A stretch of DNA of 63,236 nt, filler included, from Circinaria calcarea (Eukaryota): NCBI GenBank assembly GCA_051942165.1. It is 4 parts of 4 records of this genome, joined end to end, with 100 filler letters (N's around TTAATTAATTAA, not from the genome) between each part and the next. Parts side by side here need not be neighbours in the genome. Positions count along the whole stretch, not along the records: positions 1 to 15,781 come from JAVECS010000350.1; 3 more parts are not named here. One strand, 5' to 3'. The notes beneath the pieces were generated by a model. It was not told where the DNA came from and ran no database searches. It was given only the letters and a program-made list of their open reading frames with translations. Shown here piece by piece: positions 1 through 47,570 of this stretch; position 1 is the first letter of the stretch; each line of letters begins with the position of its first letter. The position numbers and the translations under genes were made by a program.

Positions 1-1
1 T

Positions 2-1688
2 TTACTCCACTCGACTCACCACCTTGGCTCTCACACCTTTGCTGTTCCATCTGGGCTGCGGAATGAACCAGTCACGTTCCATGTCAACATCGGTAAGATC
101 TGTTTCGTACAGTGCCATATCAAACCGACGGAAAAGAGCGGCCAGAATGAGATACATCTCTGCGTTGCCCAAGTTGTATCCCACACAGCTGCGTGTGCCT
201 TTGCTGTACGGGTGGAAGTGTTTTCGCAAGAGGCTAATTGTGCCGTTAGCCTTCGCCTTCACCCAGCGCTCTGGCCTAAAGGCACGAGGGTCCGGGAAGA
301 TGTCGGGATGGTAGTGAATGAAAACCACGATTGAGCTGATGGGTGTACCTGCGGGAATAACCCAGTCTTTGTAGTGCGTGTCTACATGTGATATCCGCTG
401 GGAACGCGCGGAAACGCCGTTGTGAAGACGGAGACCTTCTTGGATACAGGCGTTCAGAATTGGCAGCTTTTCTAGCTCGGCCACCGATGGTACCACCTTC
501 GGGTCCGGCATTATCATCTTCAACTCTTCACGTAGTATCTTCCCCAATTGAGGCTGGGCTAGCAGATGGTAATGAATAATGGCCAGTACCTTAGCTGGTG
601 TTTCGGCGGCAGCTACAACCAGAATCGATGCCTCGTCTGTTAACCTCGCTGGTTCCTTTTGTGCAGGCGAAAGTTCTGGACTATCTCGCATCTCCTCAAA
701 GATAGTCCTGCGGTGCTTTCCGACACCCCTACTGCCAAGGACTCGCTGGATCTGACTGGCTATACGCTGTAGCTTCATGTCAGCTTCGAGAGCTTTTGGT
801 AGCCAAGAAAATGGACGACCAGGGCCTGACGCGGGAATCGAACTTACGTTTTTATATGAGAGTAATGTCGAAACATCTGGCGATAAAGCCGCCGCTAACC
901 GCGTTGGTAGTCTCTCTAGAAGTCTCGGTAGCCATGGGAATTGGCTAATAAGAGCTAAACTGCGCATTAAGCAAAGGATCTCGTCTTTCCACTTGACATT
1001 GAAATCTGGCAGGTCCAGTAACCTGTAGTCGTCGTCGAAAGCATAGTCGGTAATGACATCTGTGCCATACGCCAAATACGCACACGTCAAATTGACTGGC
1101 TGGCCATTCTGCCTATGCTCCTCGATTCGCTCGCTCAGGCGCTCGGTTTTCTCTTTCATCAGGCACTCCAGGGCAGTGACGCTGCGTTTACTGAAAAAGG
1201 GATCGACGGACGCCCTCCGCATGCGGTGCAGCTCATGTGGGACCGTGAAGCCGATGGCGGTTGTACAGTCGGCGGCTTTGGTATGCCACAAGTATTTGTC
1301 CTTTGGGGCATTGGCGCCTGTGTAGATTTGGTCGAAGTAGTCAGGGTCGAGGATGTGGAGCTCGTGCGGACTGATCCGAACGATGGGACCTGGGGAAACC
1401 TTTAGAAGAGAGAGCTTGTAAGCGCCAGAGGAAGAGCAAGAAATCTTTCATTTCTAGGGAAAGATACATGCCGTATTTCTTATGCATCTTCTCAATTTCC
1501 CAAATGTACATGCCGCTACGGATAACATCATGGTAGAACTCAACCCACAGGGTGGCTGCCGCAAGTTTCGGACCGGGGAATTTGGCCAGAGGGTGAAAGT
1601 AAAGACGATACACGGCGAGACCAATGCTGTAGAGCAGGAATATCACGGCAGTAAACACTGCAGCATCGGAAGTAGAAAGAGAGAACAT
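2..1688 (-). CDS. Cytochrome P450, trichodiene-oxygenase (CYP58)-like; 3 exons (1688-1472, 1389-848, 766-2)
   Basis: N-terminal TM plus [33 protein letters not shown]-helix VAAAETP; EGLR; PERW; heme motif [11 protein letters not shown]. Intron 1 is GC-AG (1471-1390). Intron 2 (847-767, GTAAGT..GCTGAC..CAG) is in frame. Stop TAA at 4-2. Confidence 0.93.
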
Positions 1689-2677
1689 TATACCTTTCAA
1701 ATGTCGAGAAATCACTGGAGCGGTAAAAGAGCTCTGCAAATTGAAGGCTTCCAAGTTAAACAAAGTTGACACAAGGTAATCCATCACACATCGGTTAGCG
1801 CTTTTGATATTTCTAATATGCCTAGTTATTTTTAAAGCATTTGGTGAGGCAGTAATCTAAAAATTCAATAGGGTGGCATGAGCAAAGGAGCAGGGTACTG
1901 TAAGCAGTCATGACACTGTGCAGGCCATTATGGTAGATTGCAATCACACCTACTCTGTATGCAGTATTTCATGAATCGCAATTGCTTTGTGTTTGGCATA
2001 CGTACACTAACTTAACTGTTGGAGTCATCCTTCGGGCCTATATGCGGCGGGTAAGGCAAGGTAGGCAGCAGGTTAGATCACGGATAGTTTCCGGACGATT
2101 GGTTAGTCTGCACGACTACCACTGCTCCACTACTCATCGGTAGATCAAGATCAGCTGCATGAGCAGGGTGACTCAGAGGGCATGGGGGTGGGCTTGTTTG
2201 CACTGCTGCTCAACTCCGACAGCAGGCAGTGCCTCTTACCAACATTGTTTCATTGGGAGGAGTGGGAGGCCATTGCCTACCACGATAACAATACTGTGCA
2301 TCCCCGGTAGTGGACCCTCCGCAACGTGGCTGCATACGTACAGACTCCGCCGGCTAGAACACACAGGGGCCGTATTCTGAATAATGCTGACCTTGAACTC
2401 TGTTCCGTCGCGAAAAAAGTCCGTGTAATAAAACGCCACCCTGGTATGTTCTTGAAGGCGGAGCCTGCACATTCGGGGCTGACACCACCTTTTCCATCCT
2501 TCGGTATTCAGGTGGACGGGTGGACGGGTGGACGGGCAGCTTATGGAGAACACCAGACTGCTAGTGAGATGCTTACGACCAGAAGAGGGTATGACCTGCA
2601 TGAAATCAGCCCTGAGCTTTTTAGTGGAATGATTCGAAAACTATTGGAGGTATTGAAAATGATCTTGACAGATTTAG

Positions 2678-3747
2678 CTATGCTAGTAACGTTTTGGCGC
2701 CACTCGTTTGCCAGAAACGCATCAAACTACTATGATCTTTGAATAGTGGCAACGCATATAAAACCATGGTCCATAAGCACCATACTTTCCAGGTAACTCG
2801 GTCTGCCTCAATGCTTCGTAGCATTAGCACTCTGACAACCAATAATCCTCCTGCCATTAGACTTGCCGCCCATCCTAGCTTTCCCAGTTCCCAGAACCAT
2901 GGGCAGACTATGGACCAGATTATGACTGGGATCGCAATGCTCCACCGCGCAATACCGTCGCCATGTACGATGGGCAATGTTCTGCGGCCGCGGGCCTTGT
3001 CCCCTTCGACGTCGGCCATGTCTTGCATTTGCAGAGTTGAGAAGATGATGCCACCGACGATGCCAAGCCACTTGTAGGCACGGGAGCTGAGGGTGTATTG
3101 TCCGTATCCAGCAGCTACAGTCGTAGCACCGGAGCTGTAGCACATGAATCCGGCACAGTTGATAAGATTTCGTACGATGTAGTTTTCATCGGCCCCTTCC
3201 AGATCGTTGTACATCCAAGTAAGCACCATCATTAACACCGTCTCTTCCACACCACCTAAATAGAGGGTTATGAAGAAGACCACAGGAATAAAAAAAAGAA
3301 GCAACCGTCGTGCGGACGAAGGGGTGATTCGAGAAGAAGGAAGTGCCCGCCAGGGTTTGTTGACCGAGTCTTCGAGAATGGAATTGGGTAGGCGCTGGTT
3401 GGCCACGTCAAAGATCAACACGTTCAACCAGTTCCAGAGGATGACCTGGGGAGTACGAGCCAGGATCGTGGTCAAGGATGGGTTATTGTTAGTGGTGAGA
3501 AGAGGTCCGGAAAGGGCACTGAAGATCCCAAAAGCAGTTTCTGGACAGACTATTGATTTCAGATCATTCCGAGTGAATAACCAGATGGTGTAAATGTTGG
3601 ACCCGAGAGAGCTGGCCTATTCAACTAGATTAGTGATGCATAGGCTTTTCCCAGGTGTCATTTCTATCAGCACATTGAATCAAGGGATATGGGAAGTACC
3701 TTTGAGCCAGATTCTGTAGCCTCTGATTTCTGCTGAGGGATATCCAT
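2678..3747 (-). CDS. UbiA-superfamily integral-membrane terpene cyclase/prenyltransferase, Fma-TC-like; 2 exons (3747-3700, 3616-2678), 328 aa
   Basis: Spliced N-terminus MDIPQQKSEATESGSK|ASSLGSNIYTIWLFTRNDLKSIVCPETAFG. Motifs ANQRLPNSILEDSVNKPWRALPSSRI, WMYNDLEGADENYIVRN and QMQDMADVEGDKARGRRTLP. Many hydrophobic helices. Confidence 0.88.
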
Positions 3748-4621
3748 GCTTGCCAACGAAATATGATGCCAGAGCGGGATTCAAAAGTGAATGGACATTA
3801 TGTCTTGAGATAAAGAAATAGCTAAATCCTCGTACCCAGCACGGGGCTGAGGCCGTAGTTCTGTATTTAACTGTGCAAGAAACAGAGCGTAATAAAGATA
3901 CCAAGCTGGTGAATCAAAAGTAGTAGTATACCTCGGGTATGTTAGGTTTGGAGTCCCGGTATCTCCGCATGCATCCAGACAAGCATCCTTTATACAGCGT
4001 AGGATTCGAGGCATGGTTCCAGATATCCTGGCAAATGCATTTCAGCTCTTACTCGCTCGAGATTCCTGCGGGGCTTTACCCAGCGGATCGGGCTGAATGA
4101 AACCTTCCAAGACCGAAGGATCCCGTATGTGTCCTCTCACTCGTCGTACGGAAGAAGGGCGGGATTACGCAAGACATCACCAGGAAGGCAATGCCGTGCA
4201 TATCGTCCAGTTGCTTCATCAGGGGCCATTTGGATTCTGGGTGTACACGGTTGCGTGGTATAGGAAGCTATCTGGTGTGAGGAAGAACCGCGTGTATCAA
4301 TTAGAAAACTAGCGTGATAGTTTACCGAGTAGCTGTACTAAAATACCATAAGGATGCGCTAAGAAGCGCGCCGTAGCTGTGCGTCAGCCTCTGGATGCGC
4401 CTCGTCCGTTGTGATGGCGGTGGAGACTCGAAAGGGTGTGGATGCTCGGGGGGCACAAGCCGAGAGGCACACAACTCCCATACGCTGGAGACGACGGCTT
4501 CCGCAAGGTAGCTGCCATCTCTCTTCGGTTGCATAAGGCTGGTCATGGCATCTCATAGAAAAGGCCTTGCTTGCTCATCCACATCTTCCACCATCCTCAC
4601 AATTCAACAACCAAGCTCATC

Positions 4622-5652
4622 ATGGCCCCGCTTGTCTGGCTCGTAACAGGCTGCTCATCCGGCTTTGGAGAGATCTTTGTGCACAGCCTCCTGGCCCGCG
4701 GTGACAAAGTGATAGCCACGGGGCGAAATGCCTCGGAGCGTTTGGCCCACCTCAAGGAAACTGGTGCCAAAATCCTAGACCTAGACGTTTCATCCCCGCA
4801 GGAGGTGCTCAATGCCAAAGTGGAAGAGGCAATCCAGTGTTACGACGGTATTGACGTGCTGGTGAACAATGCCGGTTATGTGGAAGCAGGTTTGGCCGAG
4901 GAAGTGAGGTGGGTCCCCAAAGGTCTACTCCTCTCGTCCACTTGGAAGCCAGCCGTCATTTGATACCCTTATGCAGCAAAGAACGATGGCTCGATCAGAT
5001 CAACACCAATCTCTTCGGGTCTGTTAATATGACTCGCGCCATCCTTCCCCACTTCCGCACGAAGAGGTCCGGAAAGATTGCCGTGATCGGCTCCACTGGT
5101 GGCTGGTCGGGTGAAGTTGGGGCAGCTCCATACAGCACGACCAAGTTTGCTTTAGAAGGTCGGTGTTCCATGCCCGAGATCCTACACTAGTGATTGCACA
5201 CTGAAAATGTCTTCTCAGGCTATGTGGAATGCCTCCAAAAGGAAATCGGGCAGTTCGGTATTCAAGCCATCATTTTCGAACCCGGCTACTACCGTACCAA
5301 GATCTTTTCGGCTCAGAACTGCAAGGTGTCGCCGCCAACGCACGAGGACTACAACGACCTCTTCGCCGCCATGGTCGCGGGTGTAGGAGCCGTGGATGGG
5401 AAGCAACGCGGGGACGCGGTCAAATGCGTGGAACGCATGATTGATGTGGTCAAGTTGGAGGGCATGGCTGCAGGAAGGGCCATGCCGAAAAGGCTGCCGA
5501 TAGGACCGGATTCGATGGAGATTATGAGGGCAAAGTGCCTGGAGACGTTGAAGATCTGCGATGAGTGGAAGGACTTCGTCTGTAGCACTGATCTGGAGCC
5601 AGAGAAAGGGGAGTTGAATAAAGAGCAAGGGCAATACAACGTGGTCGCCTAA
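4622..5652 (+). CDS. Classical short-chain dehydrogenase/reductase; 3 exons (4622-4908, 4977-5158, 5219-5652)
   Basis: VWLVTGCSSGFG (TGxxxGxG), DVLVNNAG, catalytic YSTTK, FEPGYYRT. Two GT-AG introns restore the frame. Confidence 0.93.
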
Positions 5653-6001
5653 AAAGGGGTTAGCCGGGGATTAGTTTGATAAGAACAGCCACCTTCAGCG
5701 TTTTTGCGAGGATATAGAGACATCCTGTGTTGCACCTGACAATCCAAAGTCAGAGGGCTATAGCGAAAACCCTTGGCTCAGAAAACAGACTCATAGTCAA
5801 AAAGTGAAGGCTGCTGCATACACTCTTGTCAACTTTTTCGGCCACGCCACTGTCAGATGCCCCATTACTGCGTACCTGCTATTAGACCACGTGAATGATG
5901 CAGGATACTCAGTTTTTCATGGAGTGAAGCAAGAGAATATAGTACACAACGTCACGAACACCAAAAGCCGTCCAGGGGTTTGGGTTCCAATTCCGAACCC
6001 T

Positions 6002-7777
6002 TCAGCGTTTACCCACCACCTTAATCCTCACCCCTTTGGTATCTTCTTTCACCAGCGGCACAAAGCCATCCGCCGCGATCTTCACATCCGCCAGTTCCGT
6101 CTCGTACAGCTCCAGTACTCCCTCATCACCCTCCAGCCCAACGGCATATTTTCCACCCGACCCGAACCGCCGGAAAATGCCGGAGAGGCAGAGGTACATT
6201 TCCGCGTACGCCAGATTGATCCCCAGGCACTGCCGGCTGCCCTTGGAGAACGAGAGCAGATATTTGTCCAAGCCGGGGTTCTCGATCCAGCGCTCGGGAC
6301 GGTAGGTCCGCGAGTCCGGGAAAATCGACGGGTCGTGGTGGATCAGGACGCTGGTCATGCCGACGGGAGTACCGGGTGGAATGGCCCAAGTCTTGTGGTT
6401 CTGGGTATCCGTAAAGAGCATTACTCGATCCGGCGAAATCCGCTGCAGGCGGGACGAAACGCCGTAGCTGAGTCGGACGGCTTCTTGAATCACGGCGGTC
6501 AAGTATGGGAGCTGTTCTAACACTGAGAGCGGGTACGAGACGTTGGGGTTCGGAATTGCGTCGCACAGCTCCGTTTTGAGCTTCCGGAGCGCTGGCGGGC
6601 AGGTGAGAAGGTGATATGTTGCTACGGAAAGCGCCCAGGCGGTCGTGGCGGTGCCGGCGCCGACGACGATTTGCGCCTCGTCCGTAAGGCGTTCCGTCGA
6701 TTTATCGGCGTCTGGTAGATTACTTTGAAGGATCTCATGGAAGAGGGTTGGATGTGGGAGATCTTGGTAGGTATCTTGGGGTTGGGCTTTGATCTCCGTG
6801 ATCTGTTTTTTCACTCTCTACCAGTGATGGTTGGTGGTTAGTAATTTGCGTTTCTGTACTTGCAGCGGTGATTCGAGGAACTTACTCGTGCAAGCCGGAT
6901 CACTAGATCAAGATCAGGCGACAGGCGTGCCGCCAGCGATTCTGGAAGACTCTGGATGAAATGAAGGATCCATATCCATTGTTTCAGGAGAGAGCCTTGT
7001 TTACCGGCAGCCACTACCGTGTCGTGATAGGAAGGGTCAAAATCTTTTGCCTCGAGACGGTGGTCAGAGCGACCGTAGGAGTACTCCATAACAACGTCTG
7101 GTTAAAGATTAGCATAACTCCCAGTCGAACCGGCTGGCAAAGCGTGGCCTTGATAACCAGCCGAGCTTACCATTCGTAAACGCTGCATATGCCAAGTTTA
7201 GTGGTATAACTTCGCTGCTTGTTCGGAACCTTTTAAGGAGCTGCTGCACTCTCTCTTCCACAACCGGTTGTAGTCTCCGCACGCTCGCCATGGAGAAGTA
7301 TCTGTTCAATGCTGCCCTCCTAGCCTTGTGGTGGTCATGTGGAGCTGTGGAAAACATTGCTCCAGGAGTGCCGAACTGCTTGGTGTACCATGCCCACTTA
7401 TCACGCTTCTCACCGCTGGCGCTGGATGCGTAGAGCTTATCAATATACTCTGGATCGGAAATATGGAGCTCATATGGATTGATACGAACAATAGGGCCGT
7501 ATTTGGCGTGCAAATCGCGGATATGGAATGTGTACTGACCACGCAGCACCACGTCATAGTAGAATTCGTACCTGTGTCATAAGTTGAGGATGCATATTTC
7601 CCAGAAAATGGCTAGAGAGTAGGAGTACCATAAAGTTAGAGCTGCCAGCTTTGGGCCGGGAAACTCGGATATAGGGCTAAAGTACAGGCGGCGGATTGCT
7701 CCGAGGGCAACATAACAAGCTGATATCACAAACACAAGTGGCCAGATAGACGACGCTGGGAAAACCCAGAAAGCCAT
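6002..7777 (-). CDS. Cytochrome P450, trichodiene-oxygenase (CYP58)-like; 4 exons (7777-7629, 7571-7171, 7097-6886, 6817-6002)
   Basis: [42 protein letters not shown]-helix GAGTATT, EAVR, PERW, heme motif FSKGSRQCLG. Three GT-AG introns. Confidence 0.95.
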
Positions 7778-8766
7778 TGTAAAGGTAAAGGGAGTACAAG
7801 TGGAAACACGCACGAGCTGGGTCTTCAAATGTATCGAGAAAGTTACCTTGGACAGGAGTGTTGAGAAGTCGAGGCTACAAATAAGGAACTCTACAACCGG
7901 TATTTAATTGCCGTTAATGTGTAACAGCACCCGATTTCAAACCCGTATTGGTGTGTATTACATTGTTTTATGATGATATGCAATCAGAAAGTTTTTGTGT
8001 ATACAAAGAAGCACAGCTGCGGCAAAGCTAATAGCCTCGGCTATTTCGTTTACAGGACCGTTCGGTTCCCGCCCACTCGGCGCTGATCAGCGCACAAGGG
8101 GGCTATGACAGAGAGGCCCCAGAAGGACCGGTGGAAGGAAAGGGAAGGAGAGAGGGATTCGTGGAAAGGGATCGGGATCGGGATCGTATGTAGTGTGCAG
8201 CCAACAATGACCGTCGGGAGAGCAGTTTGTTATCGGTGGAAAGGGCAAGAGATCGTTTAGGGTGTCAAGGTAGTGAGCACACCCCCGAGACGAAACTGGC
8301 AAGGCCCCAAAGCGAGGTCGAGCAGCAACAAGCACGACGAAACGAAAGCCAAGATCTAGCAGCATACCAAGTATGGAGGTTGAGACTTTAATGGACGAGA
8401 GAAGTAAGAGGTCTCTACACAACTCACAGCGATCAAGTGCTACCTACCTTATCCACCGTTAACTGCACCAGGTCGATCAAGTTGAGAGGAGTTAAAAATA
8501 TGGCAGTTTTGCGAAGCAGAATTGCTTGCATTGGATATATACTGGCTAAGCAACCCGTATCTAACGCGCCACAAAGCTAAAAAGGCCAGTAGGATCGCAC
8601 ATCGCTGTAGAATACCTCCCCGAGCCGTTAAAACATCCATAAGAACCCCATTTTTAAAAGTTGTAGAGCAAATGCTGCAGGATGCAGAGCGTGTACTGAA
8701 TGTCACCTCTTTAGCTTGTCGCCTCAATATACCGAGTGTTCACCTGGTAGCTTCACTTGAGGTACT

Positions 8767-11700
8767 TCAGGTTACCGTCCTCATCGCGGAGATGGGCGTG
8801 GCATCGTCATTTCGTAGCTTTTTGTAGTCGAGGTAGGTTGCTCCATTATCATTATGTCCCATATCCGAGCCTAGTTCGCTAACCTCATCCTCATGCACAA
8901 TCTTGGTCGAGAGACCAGGTTGCGAGAACTGCCCACTTCTCCGGTTGAAAGTTGTGCTTGAGCTGTCAATACTCATGGATGTGCTGGACCTGCCGTGAAC
9001 TAGATCTGGAGTGGATGGAATGCTGGAATGTCTTCCGTCAGGGCTCAAATAACTCGAGTCATCGAAGCCACCCTCGGAGACACCTTCGCCTAAGTCACTG
9101 CCCTCAGTACGAACAGAATGCGAGTGACTATCTTCGAAGGTGGAGATATCACGCCTAGCGCGTTTCGGGCTTGCTTCTTGGTCTTCTTCCTGCTCGGCAC
9201 TATGAGCTAGTTGGAGTCCTTCTACGGCAGCAGCGCATTGATCGGATATATTTCGAATAATATCAGCAATCGCATCTGTCTTGTCACGCAAATGCCTATC
9301 TGCAACGTCTGCCATGCTAAGCTCGCTATATCGTTTACTCCTTTCACCGGCCGGCGGAGTGAAGAAGCGACTTTCCATCTCAGGTGTGACGTGGTCACCG
9401 TCAAAGTTCTTGAACATTCCGTCCAGACTGCCCGTAAGACTGACGGAACGTCGCGAGTGTTTTCGCATGCTTGATGGAATCCTGCCGGATGTGACACTGC
9501 CTGCAGCTTTGGAGTACTCGCTACCGGCAAATGATTGCCCATCATCGGCCTCCTCAGGCGCATCTACGTACTCTGCACCAATATATCCCGTAATCTCTGG
9601 TGCTTGGTTGAGCGAGCGGACGATGTGCTCCATGTGATGAGTTTGACCATCGATAAGGCTACGAAGATGTATGACCACCCTCTGCGCTTCATCACGCTGC
9701 CGATGAATAGTCTTGTTGGTTTGTTGCAGCGAGGAGAGTGCTTTCTTATTCCTCTTTCGCTCTCTTTCGAGTTCTTCTGCGATTTCCTGCTGCAATACTA
9801 ATGCCTCCAATGCATCATCACGCTGTTTCTCGGTTCCTGATAAACGGACGGTAAGGCGAGCAGCATCGTCTTTTTGCTGGTCGATGAGGACAGTAAGGCG
9901 GCGATTTTCGCGCTTGTGAGACTCAATCTTGACCTTGAGATCTTGGGTTTCCTTGGTGAGCTGTTCGGCAAAGGTCTGAAACTTGAGAAACTGCAGATAA
10001 AGGATGTCAGTGTGAATTGGGAGACTGGAAATGTTGGAGTTACCTGTTGCTTCCAGTTTTCAAGCTCCTCCACAAGGAAGTTATTCCTCTTGGATACCTT
10101 GGATATCTCGGTATCCATTCTACCTTTGAGGTTGATGAAATCTTGCCAGGCTTCCACAGCATCTCTGTTGTATTGGTTACGTTCGCGAACAACCTCGTTG
10201 AGGTGTCTCATTGACACCTTGGTCATCAAAGGCTTCTTAACCGCACCACCGAAGATGGCTTTCATGCCAGAGTTTCGTCCCTAATCAGACGTTGGCATAG
10301 TTCACGTACAATAGAAGAGAAGTAACTCACAAGTTTTTCGCAGACATGGTCCATGATACTCATGACGTTATCCTGATTCCACCATTGTGGATCCTGCACA
10401 CTCTCGACCTCTCCGCGCATCACTATGATCTGACCAGCTGGAATCAACTTTCCGCCACCGTACGCTGACCGTAGGTGAGCTGGTACCCCGGACGGCGTGA
10501 CATCACCGCTGAGGGCTTGAGTGAGTCTGTTGATCATCTTAGTTCTCTGTCCTGCAGAGAGAGATGACGGCGGACTCGAAGTAAGGACGAAATTTCGGTC
10601 CAGGTCAATAACGAGGGCATCAGTTGGGGCAGTGAACAAGGTACGGCATTCTGCCGTAACACCCAAAATATATGGGCCAGGCTCCTGAACCATTTCATTA
10701 ACATGACGCGCATGGACTACAGGTTCGTAGAGACCACTCCACTCATACACGCGGACACAGAACCGGACAGTCTCGGCGGCCACAGTAAGCATTGCAGGGT
10801 AGTGGCTGACAAATATAATTCGTCGGGTGGGCGACACAGCGGCTTCAATCACGCCAACAATGTTGGGGATCGACAAACAGGTAAAGAGAGGCCACATGGA
10901 GAAATTCTGGAATCCGGTCGGAGAAGACGGGAATTGGTAGCAGAGCGCGTAGTCCTTCATGTCAATTCGGACGAGATCGTTCAATCTGGGCGCTGGAAAG
11001 CTGAGGATGCGTGAAACTTCCTCAGCGTGGAAAAGGTTGGTCGCTTTATTCCAATGAATCCACATTCCTCGAAGGTAGTCTCCAAGCAGGTCGTACAAAG
11101 GATATCTAGACAGAAAGCTGAGGCAGTATGGGATCCAGTAAGTCTCTTCCGGCGAGTCGTAGAAGTCGGACTCCGACTTCCTACGCAGATCACGTATTGT
11201 TTGTGCGCGTTTCTCATCAGCTCGCGACCACACGCGTAGGGCAATGCCGTACAATGTGTGAGACGAATCTTGCTGGAGGACGAAAGAGTGGTGTACGCAG
11301 TGTGGTTGGCTGCGACCAGTAGATATTTCCACATCATGAGGGAAGCAGGCCTAAGAGTCATTAGCTACCAGCAATTGGATACACCGGCAGTATTGGTTAA
11401 GTGTTTTAGGGTCACTCACCCTCATGGCTGCGTGAAGGGCTCGAGCAATCTCGTTGTCTTGCTCGATTCTCGGGCTGCTCCCCAGTATTTCCGGAAGCCA
11501 AAACTGGGCCACGGCCCCCTTCATGTGGCCTATCTTGCCTTGAGTCGGAACTGGCGCCTTGAGCCACTGTGATGGCTCCCGACCCACACCGCACACCATG
11601 TAGGCATGAGTCAGGGTCTTCGGCGTCCTTTGGGTGGGCTTCGCGTTGAGAGTGGACGGGATGGGTTGGGTGATGCGTGAATGAAGGGAGGAGGTCCGGC

Positions 11701-11800
11701 TAGGAACGACGACAAGATGGTCATTCTGATCATGGGTAGAAGGCCTTTCTCGTATAGCTGGACGGACAAAGGACGAATGGTCCCGCAGTGAGGGACCCAT
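8767..11800 (-). CDS. DENN-domain protein (putative Rab GEF) with coiled-coil C-terminal half; 4 exons (11800-11420, 11350-10331, 10280-10044, 9990-8767)
   Basis: uDENN/DENN-type segments ACFPHDV, HSFVLQQD, YWIPYCLSFLSRYPLY, RRIIFVSHYPAML, PGPYILGV, VIDLD. Heptad-rich region then Ser-rich tail. Canonical introns join four ORF-track pieces in frame. Confidence 0.85.
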
Positions 11801-14800
11801 TGCACCGAGTTTGTCGGTGTCTTCACGATTCAGTTCGGGTAGGACCGTTAATTTGACCAATTGGAGATAGACCAGCTACGCGCCTCGACTTGAGTTGGAG
11901 TCAGACAAAGTCGATCGTAGGGATCGTCAGGCACCAGAGGGCACCTGGCTTGAAGTAATTGGCACGATGAAGCTGAGGGTCAAGACATTCGAACTGCAGC
12001 AGTTTGTAGGTAGAAGAAAGGATACTGTATACCGGGGAGGTGAAGTGATGAAGAAAGGTTGGTGGGCGGTGATGGAGGAGGGTAGTGGTAGTGGTGGTGA
12101 TGGTGATGAAATAATGAAAAATAGTACCGAGTAGTTCAGGAGGAAGGGCCATAGGAAAGATCGCGCCCTCCTCCTCCTTCGATGTCTCGTGGCGCACCCT
12201 GGGACAAACAAGCCTAGAATTGCCGTGATCGACGCCAGGGATCCGATGGATCTGACCAATAACTGGCTGAAACGGGGGACGAGACTGGAGATGGCTCCGA
12301 GAGATAGGCCCGGCAAAGATCGCGGGGCTGTTCTAGCATACGGCCGGGTCGCCTCACGATATGTACAGGGGGTGGAGACTTGTACTCCGGAGATGTTTGC
12401 CCTGAAGTTCGGGCATCCCCACGCGAGTCGAGCAGAAATATTCATTGCATGCTTCTACTTGCCAAGCCTCACCTCGTTGAAGAATACCGACTTTGTGCCC
12501 GTTGATTTTCCTCTCGAAGCACGTTGTTGGCAACGGTGTGGCAGTATGCCGACTCCACAGGGTCCCAATACCGGTATTGGGTCAAATCAATAAAGTAAGG
12601 TAATGACTGCATGTCCCTGATTCACATGGACAGTAGGGCCTAATCTTCTGTGGTCCGGGGTCCAATTACGGGACATCTTTTGTCCAACTGCCGATGGACG
12701 AGTGAGAGCTCGGCTAGCGGAAATGTTTAATCTAATTCTCCGAGAAAGTTGCAAACGGTTAGGCTGTCGCAGTCCATGAGACAAGTCGATTTGCGGGACC
12801 CATGGGCGGGAGATCCAATGTAGAAGACGACTCCGCACCGGAAAGGTCGTTTGCAGACAGGTAGTATGGGCGCCTGTCAACAATCCCCTTTATCCCGTGT
12901 CAACGCTTCTGTCGTGGGAAACTTGCCTCGGAAGACGATAAGCTGACGCTGGTAATTGAGTTTCAAACGACTCCGCTAGGTAGAGTGTTCCCTACCTAAG
13001 GTTTACACGGAAAGTGGGCTGCAGGCAGTCCGTTGTCACGCCAACTTCATGCTCGACAGGTTCCGCTGGCTGGGCTGGCTGGCTGGGCGCGCATGCATTT
13101 ACAGTACATGGAGCAATCTCCCGGGAAAGCCATGTGGAGTCATCACGTGATTCTCTCTAAGCCCAGCCAGGGGTAAATAAAGGCCCTACGGAGTAATATA
13201 TTTGCCGTTCTCCATTGCAATACCTTTAGGTAGTATCGAGACCCCTCGGCGACTATGGATTTCTTCAGTCCCATCACTACTATCTCCGTGTTTCCTATAT
13301 GAATTTTCTGGTCTTAGCGGATAATTCACTAGAGGAGAAGCTTTTACGTGAACTGAGAGGGCACAAATCCGTTACAGGCTCGAGAGTAAAAGACTACATG
13401 GGTAAGATGGGAGGAGGCTCCCTAGGATCTTTATCCCTTGGTTCAACCTCGATGCTCTCCACTTTGTATCAAGTCCCGTTGCATGCTCCAGCGTGTCTCC
13501 ATTAATGCAAAAGTTCCTCCTCACAGGAAAATGTCTGTCGTTGGAGCCCTTGGACTTCATTGGACCGCCCAAGAAGTCATCTTTTCAAACTCGAAGATAA
13601 CTTATCTCGCACCCAAACACTACAGGATGATCAGACTGTCGAAGGAATTATCAAAGTCTATCTACTCGATCAGAGAGTCGAGGCCAGAAAGTGTCACCTT
13701 CAATCCTCGGGAGGAGAGACATCTCCCCTCAAATCAATCGCATTCTCCTCCTTTGGTGTTATTCCTATCCTTGGTTCACATGCGTATACCCTTTCTTTAG
13801 GTCTGGGATTCTGTTTCAATCAGCTAATTCCTCCCGTCTGACCCCACGCTATGATGCTTCGCTCTTTACGCATGCCTCAAGGTCGCATGGTTCGCTGCCT
13901 ACCTAGATTTGTAGTTCTGCGGAAGGCAGTAACACTATCTAACCTGATATCCTCTTCTACCATAGTTACTGTTGGAGCTAGGAACGAGTTTCAGGAGAAT
14001 CTAGAGTGAACGAAACATCTCGTCCCAGTGCTTCCTTAGGAATACAGAACGTCAATAACCTGCTTACCCCTCTTCTGCAGCCTCTACATAAACCATCCGA
14101 AATCCGAACGAGAACGGATATGCCATACCGCTGCAATCCACATCCGTTTGCCTGTCCTTCTCCATAGCGACTACTACTTGTAGGTCATCTGTAAGCTCCT
14201 TTCCGCTGCGGCTGCTCTCAAAGTACAACCGGCGTACTATACGCGTCACTGATATAGGATGAATGGCGGATATCTCCGAACGCGATTGCCCATCTCCCGT
14301 GTCATTAATCATACATTCCCATCACTTTCTATAGACCTGCCTCTTCCCCTCCCACTTACCTAGGCATTGTTTCTTCCATCAACAGATCTATCAACGATCC
14401 TAACCGCAAATCGTTTCATGATAAGCACTTTAATGCTCATTTCCTGCGTTTCTTACATACAAATCTTTCTGCCTGTTTTTATGGTCGGCACAGCCTATTT
14501 CTACCATAATCCTTCAACACACAAGCACCTCGAACCTCGTGCCGGCCTCCACATCTCCGACCGATTTAGGAGCAATTCCTTCGGCTCATATTCCACTCAA
14601 GTTGGACTAAACACTCTGTGGTTTGTCGGTGCTTACAGAAGCGGTCCTTGACGCTTCTTAGCGGTAACCAGTAAAGCTCGGTGTCAGTTTCTCCTCCTAG
14701 CCCCCTAGCTTCACTTGGCTGAGCTTCGGTCATCCCATCAGCGATGATTCCAATGATCGACCATGTTCTAACTAATCGCGCCCTGCAGCAAAAGTTCCCA

Positions 14801-15781
14801 ATATCGTTTGGACTGCTCCTGCTGCGTCGATGGCGCAAGTTAGATGGATACTGCACGAGACCTTTCCGCATTTTCTGCTTTTCTCATGCCAAGTATCTGG
14901 CTATGGTTCTACGATATAGGCACTCCTTCCATGCTATCAATCAAACGATATCAAAATCTCCCTCGCCTTTTTCAATCACAAGCGCTAAACCATCAGGTTT
15001 CTCACCCACGTTACCTTTCCTATCCCATGTTTATTTCCCCCCCCCCCCCCTTCCCTCTCCACTTGCTCTCCTACATCGTTCCCCATCATCGTCACCTCTC
15101 CACCGCCAGAATTTAATAATTCCCGGCTCTCCCCGAGCGAGCCAAAACATCCACCACCCGCGTACCCCACAACCCTTATTTTGTGAATTTGGGCCCCTAT
15201 CCCCCCCTCTCCCTTTTTGGCCACGGCCTGCCTCCGCCTATCCTCTCCCTTGCCCACACCTCGTAATACCGGAACCCTCAAACTCTATCACCCCGGTTGA
15301 ATCGTCACAAAACGGCCAAAAGCTTCGCGCCGCAAAAGTCGTCCGGATCCCACCCGGATACTACGGGCCACCTCGCGCGCTGCGGCCCACCACTCGATCG
15401 TTCTTGGTCTTGTCATATTCCATTAACTAGAGAAGATACCCCAGTAGCTGTTATCGCAAACGAGCGATGATCCAAGGGGGGCCGCCATCACGCTCGTCCC
15501 AGTCATTTTTTTTAAAGCTGTTTGCTATTCTGTAGAAAAAAAAATCCTTCGTTTTTTTCGGAAAACAAGATGGAAAAATTTCTGCGAACAACGGGGGTTG
15601 GGGGGGGTTTTTTGGGCAACTGTACATTTTATCTATCGAAAAAGCTTTTTTCACAGTTTTAAGTTACCTTTTTCTGTCCAATTTTCATGCGCGGATAATT
15701 GGATGTTTTTTCTTTCTTTTTTTTCCCGGGTTTCCACCTCGGGCACACACAACACCCACCTCTGGCAATCTATTTATATCC

Positions 15782-15881
15782 NNNNNNNNNNNNNNNNNNN
15801 NNNNNNNNNNNNNNNNNNNNNNNNNTTAATTAATTAANNNNNNNNNNNNNNNNNNNNNNNNNNNNNNNNNNNNNNNNNNNN
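15782..15881. other. Artificial contig-joining spacer
   Basis: N44-TTAATTAATTAA-N44; the 12-mer gives stops in all six frames. Confidence 0.98.
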
Positions 15882-31656: not shown

Positions 31657-31756
31657 NNNNNNNNNNNNNNNNNNNNNNNNNNNNNNNNNNNNNNNNNNNN
31701 TTAATTAATTAANNNNNNNNNNNNNNNNNNNNNNNNNNNNNNNNNNNNNNNNNNNN
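31657..31756. other. Artificial contig-joining spacer
   Basis: N44-TTAATTAATTAA-N44. Confidence 0.98.
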
Positions 31757-33047
31757 TAGGACACCGTGGCACCTTCCTCCTGACTCTTGCAAACGTGCTG
31801 GATCTCTTCCCCAATCCAGTCCTGAACTTCAGGGTGCGCTGCGAGGTGGGTGATCACATAAGTCAAGGTAATAGCAATAGAATCGTGACCCGCAAAATTG
31901 AAGACGAAGATGTTGCCGAAGATCTCGGACTCGGTTAGGCCCATGTTGGAGCGACGCCCCTCCATCTTGCCATGATCCTCTTCCGCCGCCGCCTTCGCCT
32001 CTTCAGATGCGCGGACCATAGCGCCGATAAAGTTACCCGTGTTGCCCTTGCCTTCGGCGATCAGGCGTTTTTCCTCTTTGATTGTCTTGGCAATATGCGA
32101 CTTGAAGATGCTCGTCGCTTCCCCGACGAGAGACCAATGTTTGGGGAGGTAGCGCCGCAGGCTACCCGTGAGGACTTTGGGGCCCAGAAGCATGATCAGG
32201 ATCGCGTTCTCCAGAATTAGATGGAGCGAATCTTTATAGGTCAAGGAATTTCCTTGTTGAACTTCTTCGGCCGCGCGATCAAAGGAATACGATTTCCCGA
32301 ATCCGGTGGCCGAGAGGACATGCAGAGAAAATCGCCTCACGTCTTTGCCAGTGTGTCTAATATCGGGAGTTCCTTTCCAGTATTCGAGCATTTCTTTGGC
32401 CTGGCGGATGCATTCGGTCCAGACAAGATTCATGTTCGGTTCGCCGAACGGAGGGCCAGTAGCTTTACGGTGTCTTTGCCAATCTTTACCCTCAACCTAG
32501 GAGAATAGGTTAGATGACTTATATTAATGCAAGGAAACGATAATACATGCAGTAGAGAGATTAGGGCCGAAGACATCAAGCACCGCTATAAAATCAGTTT
32601 CGTCAGCAAGTGCCGTAGAACAAAAAATAAAATAAACGCACCCATTATCTCCAAAGGTCTTTTAAACTCGGTCCTCCGTTGAAGTAATTCCGTGAGCGTT
32701 TCTGCATTGCAGACGTACAGCCAGTTCTTGCCAGTAGTAACTAGAATAAACGCATCACCGAGTTCAAGAAAAGTATTAGCCCTGTCGTGAACGTCCCATC
32801 CGCGATGAGCGTATCGAGTAAAAGATCCTGACCCCAAAGGAATCCAGCTCAGCACGTAGTCGATGTAGGGCCCGAGATAATCGCTGACCAGCATCCACGC
32901 CGGGCTCTCAGGATTGACGGGCACCACGACGATAGGAGCCCCAACACGGCGCGCAACTGCGTAGTTGGAGGCCAGAGTGTATGCATTCCACAAGACCCAG
33001 GTGATGGGGAGCAAGAGCAGCGCCGACCAGAGTCGGAGATCCGCCAT
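31757..33047 (-). CDS. Cytochrome P450, 3'-truncated by contig end; exons 33047-32642, 32585-32551, 32496-31757
   Basis: N-terminal TM; FGPNLST|VEGKDWQRHRK; I-helix GNIFVFNFAGHDSIAITL; LAAHPEVQDW. Intron 2 (32550-32497) is GC-AG. The heme motif lies beyond the gap. Confidence 0.88.
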
Positions 33048-34787
33048 TGCCAGTCACAAGCAGTCGATTGGAGGGCAGTTAGCAAAGGAGAAGTCTTTTC
33101 GGTCAGATGATGGCCGGTGGCAGAAAAAGATGGAGGTTGTAGCAAGCGACGGGTGTGCTGTGCTTGCGGATCCCCTTGTTTGTTGGTTACACTTTCGATC
33201 AGGTGAATGAGTTAATTAATGCACGCCTGTGCCTCCTATACACATGAGTCTGGAAATGGATTGATTGGACATGCTGTTCTTGGGCAATCGGCCTGTGTTA
33301 CGGTATGAGTCAATCGACCGGCCGAGGTTAGCACATTCAACCACCATCTCCATCTCCGACAAGGCTCAGCGTGATAGACCTATTCTACCTGCAAGGCTAC
33401 AGCTTCAGTAGGATGTTCCCTTGCAATTTTCTTTCCTTTGGGTGCGGCGCAGCGTTTATTGCCAGCGCTACCTTAGTGGCTGTTGTTACACAGAATCCCT
33501 ACTGATACAGGGCTGCTTAAGCATTATGGTGCCCGGTAGCTAATGCGCACGAATCAAGCGTCAGACGCGAGACTAAGGGAGTATAGTACATAAAATACCG
33601 TCAGATTGATTTTCGAGACAAGCCTTGTGCGTACCGCAATTAGAATTAGCTCCTTGTACCTCCGTTGTCTCCTTGCCCACCAATATTCTGCGTGTATCTT
33701 GGCCACACTGCTTTTGCCAGCTGGAGCGGAGCAGAGCAGTTTTCCGCACCCCCTTCGTCGACGGCAGGGATTTCATCTCGACTCGATTCTTCCTCGGTCT
33801 CTCACCCTGTTGCCTAATCTTGGCATGAGGTGCTGTCTTAGCTTCGCCGCCAATACTCTCCGCACATTGATCAGCCGGCACACAGTGACGTTTTCATGCC
33901 ATCCATGACGGGCTCCTGAGGCTCGGTAGTATGTCCTATGTGACCTGCGCCCCCTTTGACCGAGACCGATAGCCTCCTCCCCCCCCAGTTCCTCTCTCAA
34001 TTCTCTCCTGCTCCCTTCCATCCCATGATACCCAGACACTCCCGACTTCCCAGAAACCTCAGTTTTGGCTCCAAGAGGTTTTCTTTCGACCTCAAACTTG
34101 CAAAACTCTCTTTCTTGGTTCGCCATGCTGCTCAGTCCCGTCGTCCTTCAGCGTCTCCAGTTTCCCAAGTCTCAGCAGGATGACTCCAAGCGTTTCTCCT
34201 CTACGTACACGACGACCACAGCCGCTGCACAGGTTCGGTTCGCCGCTTCTCAGCAGCCGTTCTCCAGCGCCCTGGTGAGATTCGCCGTCGTGGCACTTAT
34301 GATAGCGGTTATCTGGGCCAGGGTACAGGCCAAGGATCACAACCTATATAATTTGGAGTGGGATGATTGTAGGTTTCGCCCAGCTATGCCTCGGACACAC
34401 TTTATTTACTACTAGGCGAATGGCTGATAGAGAGTTCTTTTTAACTAGATGCATCTGTGCTTGCTTTGGTAAGCTACCACGGTATCAAGGTTACTACCGT
34501 GTAAGAGTATTAACCAAGATTGCGTAGCTTGGTGTGCTGTACACGAGAAGGCCATTAGTATGTGTAATTGTGTAAAATTGGGGAAAAGGTAGTGGAGTTT
34601 TTAGTTTGACTCATGCAGCCTTTCACTACTACCTTACTATTATAAATTAGATATCCAAGGCGCAGTGAAATTTACTCTTCGGGAACTATGGAATCCAAAT
34701 AGTATACATTCAGACGAACGTTGTCCTCCCTCCGCATGCATTGCACCGGCCTACTTTTCTACCCTTTGAACACCTCTTCATATAACA

Positions 34788-36077
34788 CTAGACTCCTAAT
34801 TCTCGAGGCCGGGCATAACTAGACATCTCGAATTCATTCCGTACATACACTCGGTTAGGAGGTATGATATGTTCTTGCGAGACTTTGGGACCACCACTTT
34901 TCTCCGTGGTCTTGGGAATCGTCGAACGAAACCGCCAAGAGGAGTTCCACAAGGCCAGGATCCCGCGGCCCTTGATAGATCGGGTCCCGTATAGGATCCT
35001 CTTGCGAGACTCTTTTGTGTAATCAGGAACCTTGACTCTTTGGTTTTGCTTTGTGAAGAGAGCACGAAACGAGGCTAGGCAAATGATGATTATAGCTATA
35101 AAGAAGCCATCTCCGATCAGCCTGGGGTAGCTCATTTGGAAGGAGCGAATCAGAACGACTCACCGATAGTATTTTCAATTGTATTCCAAAAGTATAACCA
35201 AGTTTGCTCGGGCTGAGCGGAGAACCGCATAACGACCGCAAAGCGGATGATAGAGATTACCATGGTGATGACGACGAGGCAGAAAATTGCGGCCAAGGCA
35301 AGCTTCTGCCGGAGACGAATGCGTACTCTCCACAGCATACGGATGGGGATCGAGAGAACTGCAGGGTCTGTTAGATAGAGAGTAACTCACAGGGGGAGTT
35401 GATTGGAAGGTCATGCTTGCTAAGTCTGTTAAAACGTCCATTGCACAGTTGGTACATAGCGTTACACGCTGGAATTGTATTGCCTGAGAAGTCGAGCAGT
35501 TCCTAACGATGTCTACAAATGGTGGTGTAAGACAGTTGAACTGAATCGTCCCAATACCAACAAAATAGGTCGCGAGAGTGAACGAGAATGTGATCCACCA
35601 ATGAACTTGTTGCCCAGAAACATTTTCACCAAGCCGTCGGAAGAAAAGAAGAAAGGAGATCTTAACGCTCCAAAGTCCTGACATGAAAAAGACTATGATA
35701 GCGAGCATCCCCCTTAGGTAGGTCTGGCTATCCGTGATAAAGGTTGGAGGGATGCTCAACGACTCTCCACTGGCGAGGTGCAATGCCTGGTACATGTACC
35801 CGCTGATGCATTGCCATATAATAGCATTGGCAAGCAATAACACCAAAGCAGTCAGAACGAAGGCATCATCCAGAAAGAATTTCTTGAAGCTGCGAAGGCG
35901 AACCCAAGCACGGAAGATAACAAATAATGTTGCGAGGGCGAAACCACCCCAAACGAAGGCCTGGGTAAGTGTTAGTATGGGAGGCTGATTCCGTAGTAAG
36001 TCGGATTACCGTACGAGGAAAGTATCTTGTCCAATTCTGGGTTTTGGAGTTAAAAACCCGGAAGGGACGGAGCTCAT
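34788..36077 (-). CDS. PTH11-like (fungal rhodopsin-domain) integral membrane protein without CFEM; exons 36077-36015, 35960-35417, 35358-35164, 35095-34788
   Basis: FRAWVRLRSFKKFFLDDAF, LWSVKISFLLFFRRL, DVLTDLAILSIPIRMLWRVRIRLRQKLAL, WNTIENTIAIIIICLASFR. About seven hydrophobic segments. Intron 2 needs a GC donor. Confidence 0.85.
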
Positions 36078-36883
36078 CCTGTCAATGGAAGAAGGTACGT
36101 CGGATGTGTAGCTTAGAGCTTGGAGTTACACTATAAACGGAGGTTCAGGCTATGATAGCTGTGAAATAAGTGGGAATAGTCCCAGCGTTGTTATACTTGT
36201 CGATCTTAGTCGATGACAGTCGATGACACGATCTCTTAATAGGAATGCGGCAGCAGATTGAGGCATTCTCGATGCTAATGCTGGTGGAGGCTTGCTACCA
36301 CGAGGCGCAGCTAGTTTTCCCTCGCCATAGATGGTCATCTTTTAGCGATTCGGAGGTTGGGACTGAGAAATATAGCGTGCAATCCTGCGGAGAGGAGTCA
36401 TGCACGGCGTATTAAGGTAAATATAGGGCAAAGTACATGTAGGCAAGTTAGTCGAAGTAGGTCCCGCCGCATGCCCGAGACCACCCCTTGTCATTTGTTT
36501 GACCCCAGTAAGCGCTGGAAGCCGATTTTACGCGTGCGTATCGGAAGTCTTCCGATTGACGCTAGGGTCAACCCGAGCTGTCAGGGAACTGTAGTCTGCC
36601 AGAAAGTCTAATTGCCGACGGTAATCAAGCGGCATGGAGCTGAAACACTTTTTGAGGGAATAATTAATTTCATGGTTTCAGGCAAGCAAGCGCAGACAAT
36701 GCACTAGTCGGATATCCCTCAACCGTCAGCGCTAACATCATCTCCCTTCCTCGATAGTCGATATAGCATGGCTTATTTGTTTGGCAAGACCGCCGCAGCA
36801 TCAAATCTGCCCGCTCCAGCCACTCAATTAACTAGACATTCAAAGTACACGATCCAGAGCCTTGCGCTCCTGCCTACATTCTT

Positions 36884-39000
36884 TTACACTACCTCAGCAA
36901 GCGGTCTTTTCTCAAGTCTATCCGAAGTCTTTCCCCGTTTTGCTAGGACCTTCAGGTTCAGCCACTCCATGCCGAAAGTGAATATAAGCGCCACGCAGGC
37001 GGCCACCAATGCATAGATAAAGACAACATGAACTGCAGCTGCGTAGAGTTCACGGAGAATCTGGAGCATGTCCGGGGTCGGAGTCAACAGTTGCAAGTTC
37101 GCGGCCCCAGCCGAAATCAGTGCAGAAGGATCCACTGTTGGTAAGCGTTTGGAGACACCCTTAGATAGATTGTTTATGAAGATATTTTGGCTGATAGAAG
37201 CTGCGAGCGCACTAAGAGAGAAGAGTTAGAATATGCCAAATTGTAATCACTCCTTGGAGAAGCTTACCCTCCAAGCTGCCAAGAAAATACGGAAATAGCT
37301 ATAGAAGGATAATTAGTCCTGAGACCAGAAATCTTCTAGGGATACTCACCATTTCCCGTTGGAATGTCGTCTTCACTATGAACAAATCAGTACTAATCGG
37401 TGGTTAAATGACAGCGAGCCAAAGGTACCTGAGGACGGCCTGTAACGCAGTATACGGTACGTTCATTCCAGAACCCATACCTAGCCCGCAGATCGCAAGG
37501 TATGTAGCCCATACAACGGTGGGAGTACCGACTCCAATTGTAGTTAATAGCCCATAACCTATTATGCTAATAATTGTTCCTGTAATCATATATGGAACCT
37601 GGTTATCAAAACTTAGCAAGTGCTATTTATAGGCTGATTACGGTGGTATACGAACATAATATCCGTATTTTGCTATTAGTCCGCCGACAATAACTGTAGC
37701 TGTTATTTGTGGGGCTATTAATGCGATGAACTTAATACCGCTCTCAGTAGCGGAGACGCCTTGGATCGATTGGAAATAAATAGGCATATAGTAAGCGTAC
37801 TACGACCAAGCTCCATTAGCATATCAGAGACACATTAGAAGCTAGCGTTACGTACCACTATAGATGCCATTCCTAGAAAGAAGAGAAAGAGTGCTCCCAT
37901 TAAGATTGACCGCTGCCGTAAAACGCGTAAAGGAATAATAGCTGTCTCGCCACGCTTCCACTGGATATAGGAGAAAACAAGAAGAAGCACAACAGCACCA
38001 GCGAAAAGTCCAATAACTATAGGAGAATTCCATGGCTTACTTTGCCCACCCCATTGCAATGCTAACAACATACAGCAGACAGCCCCAATGAAGAATACAG
38101 TACCTAAACCATCCATTTGTCGAAGCTTCTCTTTGAATGGTAACTGCCGGCGACCTTCCTTGGAAATTTTTAATTTCAAAAAAACTAGAATGGAAAGCAG
38201 GGTAAAGCCTCCTATGGGAACGTTTATCCAAAAGCACCATCGATATGAAATATGGTCGGTGAAAGCACCTCCTAAAACAGGCCCAACACCTACACTAATA
38301 CCAAACATACCCACAAGAAATCCGAGATGCAGCGATCTTTTCTCCATAACAACAGTGTGAGCAACGATCACTAGAGCTCCTTGGAAAAGACCTGCAGCGC
38401 CGATACCGGCAATGGCGCGTCCGACGATGAAAGTTGGCGAGTTTGTGGCCGTTGCACATATAATCGAGCCGACTATCAAATTGCATACTGTTAGCAGCAA
38501 CGGGCAAACAGAGCCAGGGACTTCAGACCTTCGAACAACATAATCGAAACAAGATATACAACTTTGACGTTGAAAAGCTTGTATAATGCTCCGAAAGTGG
38601 GCTGAAGGGCAGTAATTCCCAGGAGGTAGACGCTCGCATACCACGAAATGTCATCTCTTCCGGGGAGCTTAGTCTCGTAAGATCATCAGAGCTATATTAC
38701 TTACAAACTATGAAAATCTGTTGTGATCCTGGGTATTGCCACCCCAATAATGGCAACGTCCAGAGCAATAAGGAATGTACCAAAACAAAGCGATAGCATT
38801 ATAATCGCCAGCTTCCACCCATGTAGATACTGATCTGCTGCATCCGCCGACGGATTGATAAAGGCGGCATTGTCTCTCGAGCCTTCGAGCACTTCTGAAG
38901 ACTGACCTTTACCATGTTTAATGATATGAGATTCAGCCACAACGTTGTGCAAGGACAGCGAATCATGGCGGGAGACTGGAGATTTAGGACGATTGTTCAT
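36884..39000 (-). CDS. MFS drug/toxin efflux transporter (DHA2, 14-TM type), about 8 exons
   Basis: [90 protein letters not shown]. GT-AG introns join the pieces in frame. Confidence 0.92.
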
Positions 39001-47470: not shown

Positions 47471-47570
47471 NNNNNNNNNNNNNNNNNNNNNNNNNNNNNN
47501 NNNNNNNNNNNNNNTTAATTAATTAANNNNNNNNNNNNNNNNNNNNNNNNNNNNNNNNNNNNNNNNNNNN
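47471..47570. other. Artificial contig-joining spacer
   Basis: N44-TTAATTAATTAA-N44. Confidence 0.98.

Follow-up and report, generated by a model that had tools for sequence, protein, structure and literature searches.

A putative sesquiterpenoid locus centred on a UbiA-type membrane terpene cyclase in the genome of Circinaria calcarea

Described UbiA-type cyclase clusters and the present locus

Clusters that pair a UbiA-type terpene cyclase with a cytochrome P450 (P450) are an established class of biosynthetic loci. A candidate member of this class is described here from Circinaria calcarea (assembly GCA_051942165.1), at positions 2-7777 of a 63,236-nucleotide stretch of DNA, filler included, which is referred to as the window. 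The locus comprises a P450 (P450a), a UbiA-type membrane cyclase, a short-chain dehydrogenase/reductase (SDR) and a second P450 (P450b). It is read as a sesquiterpenoid locus in which cyclase and SDR form a two-gene core and the P450s are accessory, and in which farnesyl diphosphate (FPP) would be converted to a bisabolane-type sesquiterpene and then oxidized; this reading is judged moderately likely.

The breadth of the class was evidenced by the HEx study, where 326 clusters with a UbiA-type cyclase and a P450 were counted in 581 genomes by 2015 and oxidized sesquiterpenoids were obtained from 5 of the 13 clusters tested (PMC5895447, bioRxiv 10.1101/247940). The tested clusters, TC1-TC13, have the same architecture as the present one, and TC9 consists of a cyclase with two adjacent P450s; unlike the present locus, none of the 13 in Table 1 of that study comes from a lichen fungus. 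In one dataset, UbiA plus P450 pairs account for 19.23% of known terpene pathways (10.1101/2025.07.08.662937).

The closest described system is the Pb_bis cluster of Penicillium brasilianum, which encodes the UbiA-type bisabolene synthase Pb_BisA, the P450 BisB, BisC, which resembles a G-protein-coupled receptor (GPCR), and the decarboxylase BisD (PMC11393291, PMC11745945). Pb_BisA is 24% identical to Fma-TC, the cyclase of the fumagillin cluster, and yields beta-bisabolene in yeast, as judged by library match (PMC11393291). Its cluster resembles the present one in the 11-residue motif I of the cyclase (NQRHPGSVAED versus NQRLPNSILED), in the QDxxDxxGD motif, in the adjacent P450 and in a GPCR-like gene in the neighbourhood. 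It differs in that here the cyclase faces an SDR head to head, the P450s number two to three, no decarboxylase is seen and the interior of motif II is another one. The fumagillin cluster of Aspergillus fumigatus (PMC7020470) likewise has a membrane UbiA-type cyclase with motif II and a neighbouring P450 and reductase; the spacing of motif I is different, and the genes identified here include no polyketide synthase (PKS), methyltransferase, dioxygenase, methionine aminopeptidase (MetAP) or regulator. The same inventory of a cyclase, two P450s and one SDR is found in the sydonol (syd) cluster of Aspergillus sydowii, whose product is a bisabolane. However, Syd1 is a class I cyclase, purified from E. 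coli and carrying DDxxD-like and NSE motifs, and the SDR of that cluster is dispensable (PMC12434612). The present locus matches no characterised cluster among those compared.

Assignment of the membrane cyclase

In the sequence-only reading, the motifs NQ..ED..NKPWR, YND and QDxxDxxGD were noted in the core protein and Fma-TC was taken as the model for the set. All of the motifs are found, as motif I N89QRLPNSILED99, N102KPWR, Y152ND and motif II Q214DMADVEGD222; the model has to be changed. UbiA-type cyclases have been defined by NxxxG/AxxxD together with QDxxDxxxD (PMC9835599), and Q214DMADVEGD222 conforms to the latter. Motif I of the query spans 11 residues from N89 to D99, and not the nine of the NxxxG/AxxxD form of Fma-TC and Tps1A. 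This spacing is that of Pb_BisA (N95QRHPGSVAED105, PMC11745945, compared as printed motif text), and for this reason Fma-TC cannot serve as the nearest model. Of the 279 homologues fetched, 265 have the 11-residue form and 2 the nine-residue form. A 2022 paper describes the BibS branch of ascomycete UbiA-type cyclases, which group with Pb_BisA; compared by way of papers citing it, this branch is probably the subgroup of the query. The motifs thus place the cyclase most likely on the Pb_BisA/BibS branch and not on that of Fma-TC.

The residues expected to hold the metal are conserved. In Tps1A, activity is abolished by D100A, D215A, D218A and D222A (PMC9835599), and D99, D215, D218 and D222 of the query match these positions. 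All 102 aligned relatives carry N89, Q90, D99, R106, D215, D218, D222, R227, R240 and W298 unchanged. The protein scores 66.3 bits against Pfam PF01040 (UbiA), for a cut-off of 34.2. Its AlphaFold model is all-helical with a pLDDT of 95.2, and the closest folds are DGGGP synthase and AfUbiA, with TM values of 0.55-0.59; no solved structure of a fungal UbiA-type cyclase was found by sequence or by fold.

A quick tree of 31 rows, made up of the cyclase family and the genome's own prenyltransferases with no characterised cyclase among them, splits off the 7 Coq2/Cox10-type proteins on a very long branch (SH-aLRT 98). By BLAST, the cyclase has no match to these seven below E 0.9. Motifs, modelled fold and tree together identify the core protein as a predicted UbiA-type terpene cyclase and not a Coq2-like prenyltransferase, and the earlier preference for such a cyclase over an aromatic prenyltransferase is upheld.

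The family is wide, with 410 representatives at 50% identity (E<=1e-30), and the nearest named relatives are mostly lichen-forming ascomycetes (among them Trapelia, Lignoscripta, Stereocaulon, Icmadophila and Usnea) at 56-69% identity. Both the cyclase and the SDR show purifying selection in comparison with a related lineage: dN/dS is 0.12-0.14 for the cyclase, and 0.05 and 0.18 for two exons of the SDR against the locus L018. In a comparison with a closer relative (run X1), where 40 of 570 differing sites are listed, 18 fall in the cyclase and give 8 synonymous and 8 non-synonymous codons, which are too few and were not used. The literature search found no paper on a UbiA-type cyclase from a lichen fungus, most subscription journals lying outside its reach. 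With a single intron, the gene is a clean, expressible candidate for an uncharacterised cyclase of this kind.

Proposed pathway, cluster membership and alternatives

P450a has the I-helix sequence AAAET, ExxR, PERW and the heme motif and is TRI4/SdnE-like. At 34-43% identity, the P450s are similar to proteins that carry the labels trichodiene oxygenase, SdnE or OtaC, the best named match reaching 51%, so that their earlier description as TRI4-like agrees with their nearest named relatives. Any comparison with CYP58 goes through automatic labels (trichodiene oxygenase/sdnE, 34-42%), Tri4 itself not being among the sequences compared; membership of a CYP family is taken at >=40% identity to a named member. 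The search for P450a relatives scored only 7998 candidates of 264-842 amino acids (aa), and missing orthologues are for this reason not evidence. No full-length record of this assembly was among its listed matches, and P450a may be mis-modelled in its annotation.

P450b has the heme motif FSKGSRQCLG and an I-helix sequence, GAGTATT, without the usual acidic residue (Glu or Asp before the conserved Thr). When this residue is missing in P450s, an unusual proton delivery can accompany its absence. The form GAGT[LAIV]TT is shared by most of the 120 relatives listed from a search that covered proteins of 149-475 aa, GAGTLTT occurring in 42. The SDR shows TGCSSGFG, NNAG and YSTTK.

In the proposed pathway, the membrane cyclase would bind FPP via Mg2+ coordinated by D99 and D215/D218/D222, and would ionise it. 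A 1,6-closure to the bisabolyl cation would most likely follow, and proton loss or water capture would release a bisabolene or a bisabolol-type product. This product would be hydroxylated or epoxidised by P450a and P450b, possibly also by a third P450, and the SDR would interconvert alcohol and carbonyl. FPP rather than geranylgeranyl diphosphate (GGPP) as substrate, the order of the steps and the action of every P450 on the cyclase product are presumed. The SDR step is not assured, because the SDR is dispensable in the sydonol cluster, where a class I cyclase accompanies the same set of enzymes. The product is probably an oxygenated 15-carbon terpene; the chance that its skeleton is a bisabolane is about even.

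The four genes had been described as a compact cluster. They need not be a closed unit, as the locus continues to the left. The stop codon of P450a lies 1 base from the end of its contig (C350), and the left boundary of the cluster is hidden in the window because the contig ends there. Exact overlaps of 141 bp, each with one partner in a genome search, join it to two further contigs (C3510 and C1077; 2463 bp and 8665 bp) in a region of 26.6 kb (Table 1). On the joined contigs a third P450 stands tail to tail with P450a, 1471 bp from stop to stop; open spliced models of it exist, its 5' end not being fixed. Two PTH11-like (Fung_rhodopsin) genes lie to the left of the cluster, outside the window, together with fragments resembling a transporter of the major facilitator superfamily (MFS) that have no Pfam match. 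The assembly forks left of C1077. The earlier statement that no PKS, acyltransferase or MetAP2 copy is visible extends to this region: no Peptidase_M24 (MetAP) gene occurs on the three contigs (0/8 matches), and a scan of open reading frames (ORFs) in the joined region, which was not exhaustive, gave no PKS, acyltransferase or polyprenyl synthase.

The membership of the P450s in the cluster is probable on comparative grounds. In run X1, bases 1-7792 are covered by three contigs of about 90% identity, with all four genes collinear; one bridges P450a and the cyclase, and another the cyclase, the SDR and P450b. The top cyclase matches P0002 and P0004 and the top P450b matches come from database contigs of equal size (17221, 26661), and the cyclase match P0003 (79% identical) and the closest P450a match (83%) from contigs that also agree in size (15284). 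At 81-82% identity the picture changes. The 9 loci of one lineage keep the cyclase, with the SDR head to head in 8 and the ninth not covering the SDR. In L018 the pair is flanked on one side by ALG11, an OXA1/COX18-type gene, PP2C and TCF25, and a BRO1 gene follows on the opposite side. Cyclase and SDR are taken as the core because this distant lineage keeps that pair alone among housekeeping genes. Four-gene synteny is seen in the 90%-identical relative, and in this lineage cyclase and SDR only are kept together. In L018 (8294-10927) the pair occupies a different chromosomal context, beside an unidentified ORF (11524-12033) and variable DNA, and looks like a relocatable two-gene cassette.

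Several points weigh against a sesquiterpenoid pathway with P450s as working members. Synteny in a relative that is 90% identical is expected even without shared function. The co-location of cyclase and P450 on the contigs of 17221, 26661 and 15284 is indirect, being drawn from their equal size. No P450 was found in the nine loci at 81-82% identity, of which 5 reach 10 kb to either side. Metagenomes commonly contain relatives of P450b (55-88%), and of the 120 listed only 2 are tied to a cyclase, indirectly. The likeness to Pb_BisA consists of motif text. In the HEx study, 8 of the 13 UbiA-type cyclase clusters gave nothing. The pathway as a whole is predicted from the genes. No RNA data set holding the locus was listed, which does not bear on its expression.

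In the first alternative, only the cyclase and the SDR are a functional mobile unit, making for example a volatile terpene or terpene alcohol with one redox step, and the P450s are neighbours in an accessory region rich in P450s and receptors. The isolated pair in L018 fits this view, and L018-L023, 97-99% alike, are one lineage. One P450 exon is matched 90 times in the genome, and P450 loci, too, lie beside PTH11-like genes more often than expected (16/74 contigs). Against it stand the equal-sized contigs (15284) of the 79%-identical cyclase and the 83%-identical P450a. In a quick tree of 101 rows (30 top matches, about half of the representatives of 285-370 aa and 15 of the 16 paralogue loci), this P450a-linked cyclase branches outside the lineage devoid of P450s (support 88 and 93), which weakly favours a later loss of the P450s there. 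The combination recurs at a paralogous locus (L038:4275-8304), where a cyclase and a PTH11-like gene are accompanied by a P450 that shares 49% identity with the third P450. An independent cyclase-SDR unit is judged unlikely.

A second alternative keeps the cluster logic and changes the skeleton, the enzyme making bergamotene or another polycyclic C15 product, an acyclic terpene or alcohol, or, like EriG, a diterpene. The width of the family agrees with this, as do the bergamotene, bisabolene, bisabolol and cyathadiene made by characterised members, and motif II of the query, QDMADVEGD, is unlike the QDMYDQxGD type of Pb_BisA. However, the characterised ascomycete enzymes named in the cited papers (Fma-TC, BibS and Pb_BisA) give bisabolyl-derived products, and the ORF scan of the joined region, which was not exhaustive, encountered no polyprenyl synthase; a different skeleton is considered rather improbable. 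Finally, an intermolecular prenyltransferase with an aromatic or lipid acceptor, suggested by the name 'UbiA prenyltransferase' in Pfam, atlas and database entries and by chlorophyll synthase and DGGGP synthase as nearest solved structures, is very improbable, as the query has the cyclase-type QDxxDxxGD and lacks NDxxDxxxD (present by pattern in 5 of the 7 canonical UbiA matches of the same genome), its NCBIfam prenyltransferase scores are far under the cut-off (best 42 versus 269) and no acceptor-making gene lies nearby.

Gene models, cyclase repertoire and receptor linkage

The window is a single contig only at 1-15781 (C350), N-spacers joining its parts at 15782-15881, 31657-31756 and 47471-47570; the assembly measures 31.5 Mb in 5512 contigs. 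Gene models were spliced from coordinates. As the sequence-only reading had proposed, the four genes are intact, each with a single open frame to a terminal stop and with its Pfam family confirmed (UbiA 3.3e-18; p450 3e-48 and 5.3e-35; adh_short 2.7e-15), and the spacing of the divergent pair and the DENN gene on the right are likewise as described there (Table 1). The first intron of P450a (1471-1390) is GC-AG, with a GC donor. The cyclase model is identical to the database protein P0130, and P450b would measure 520 aa with an alternative acceptor. The open frame at 8767-10059, without Pfam match, is probably the 3' part of the DENN gene.

Table 1. Positions of the features in the window
Feature	Position	Strand	Details
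Exact overlap C350/C3510 (L036)	1..141		141 bp; C3510 joins C1077 (L057) by a second exact 141-bp overlap
P450a	2..1688	-	507 aa; exons 1688-1472, 1389-848, 766-2
UbiA-type membrane terpene cyclase (predicted)	2678..3747	-	328 aa; exons 3747-3700, 3616-2678
Cyclase-SDR divergent intergenic region	3748..4621		874 bp, head to head
Classical SDR	4622..5652	+	300 aa; exons 4622-4908, 4977-5158, 5219-5652
P450b	6002..7777	-	525 aa; exons 7777-7629, 7571-7171, 7097-6886, 6817-6002
DENN-domain gene, right boundary, outside the cluster	8767..11350	-	Pfam DENN 1.1e-39 at 10265-11350

The head-to-head layout of cyclase and SDR is kept in the related lineage, and the two genes may share a promoter across the intergenic region. 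A search for shared promoter words gave 2 nine-mers in 3 of the 4 upstream regions, without a control run; they make no convincing common motif and were not used.

The genome-wide repertoire of cyclases matters more than the single cluster. The cyclase query has 20 matches on 17 contigs (G000; L001-L010, L037-L052). Translation of 15 of the remaining 16 loci gave 8 full-length open genes with both aspartate motifs; the other 7 are partial, frame-shifted or interrupted by stops. Open cyclase genes with both motifs number at least 9, the window gene included, two of them being a close pair. These paralogues are scattered over the family tree, where the labels of 16 rows change 14 times (a value as low arose in 128 of 500 shuffles), and the scatter points to an old repertoire, not to a recent burst. 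A mixed-fungus bin as the source of so many paralogues was rejected: the count of full-length RNA polymerase second subunits, three, agrees with one fungus. Close duplicates do occur, as L037/L038 are 84% identical in the cyclase and 96.6% in an adjacent P-type-ATPase-like gene, and L042/L047 share 93.5% nucleotide identity; these pairs, like the fork left of C1077, reflect either duplication or the presence of two genotypes in the assembly.

The class I terpene synthase family PF19086 has 1 match in the genome, a lower bound for intron-rich genes, 2 candidates having been scored. A search for the TRI5 family returned no matches, which does not show absence because its controls were silent too. 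It has been reported from 111 lichen genomes that Lecanoromycete taxa carry 6.6 +/- 3.2 terpene clusters each, and the term 'UbiA' is found nowhere in the main text of that survey (PMC11457338). With at least nine open UbiA-type cyclases in this genome, the sesquiterpene capacity of lichens may be undercounted.

PTH11-like genes form a large family here, with at least 165 matches in the genome; such receptors are also expanded in Peltigera, at 37-95 per genome (10.64898/2026.06.16.732702). Counted from 150 listed of 165 matches, with 150 of 313 candidates scored and lengths interpolated, a PTH11-like gene occurs on 7 of 17 cyclase contigs versus 0.7-1.2 expected by length, and on 16 of 74 P450 contigs versus 3.9-6.7 expected. 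A receptor link specific to cyclases was not accepted (7/17 versus 16/74, Fisher p 0.12). PTH11-like genes near cyclases were noted at L038, L041, L044, L045, L046, L047, L050, C98, L057 and L027. It is doubtful, and at most a speculative proposal, that UbiA-type cyclases and not class I enzymes are the main sesquiterpene-forming family of this fungus, many of them packaged with PTH11-like receptors as make-and-sense modules; the proposal draws on cyclase copy number and a non-specific receptor linkage only. If true, a receptor encoded in the same cluster would sense the terpenoid as a signal in the symbiosis, and this would be a layer of lichen chemistry unmentioned in the main text of the 111-genome survey.

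Some other gene groups were observed. The third contig of the window, unrelated to the first, groups a P450, a PTH11-like gene and a TRI12-like MFS transporter at 31759-38650, and the fourth carries a velvet-factor gene at 54915-55946, unrelated to the cluster. Elsewhere in the genome, six Coq2-like prenyltransferase loci (L059-L064) are beyond the needs of ubiquinone synthesis and may include meroterpenoid genes.

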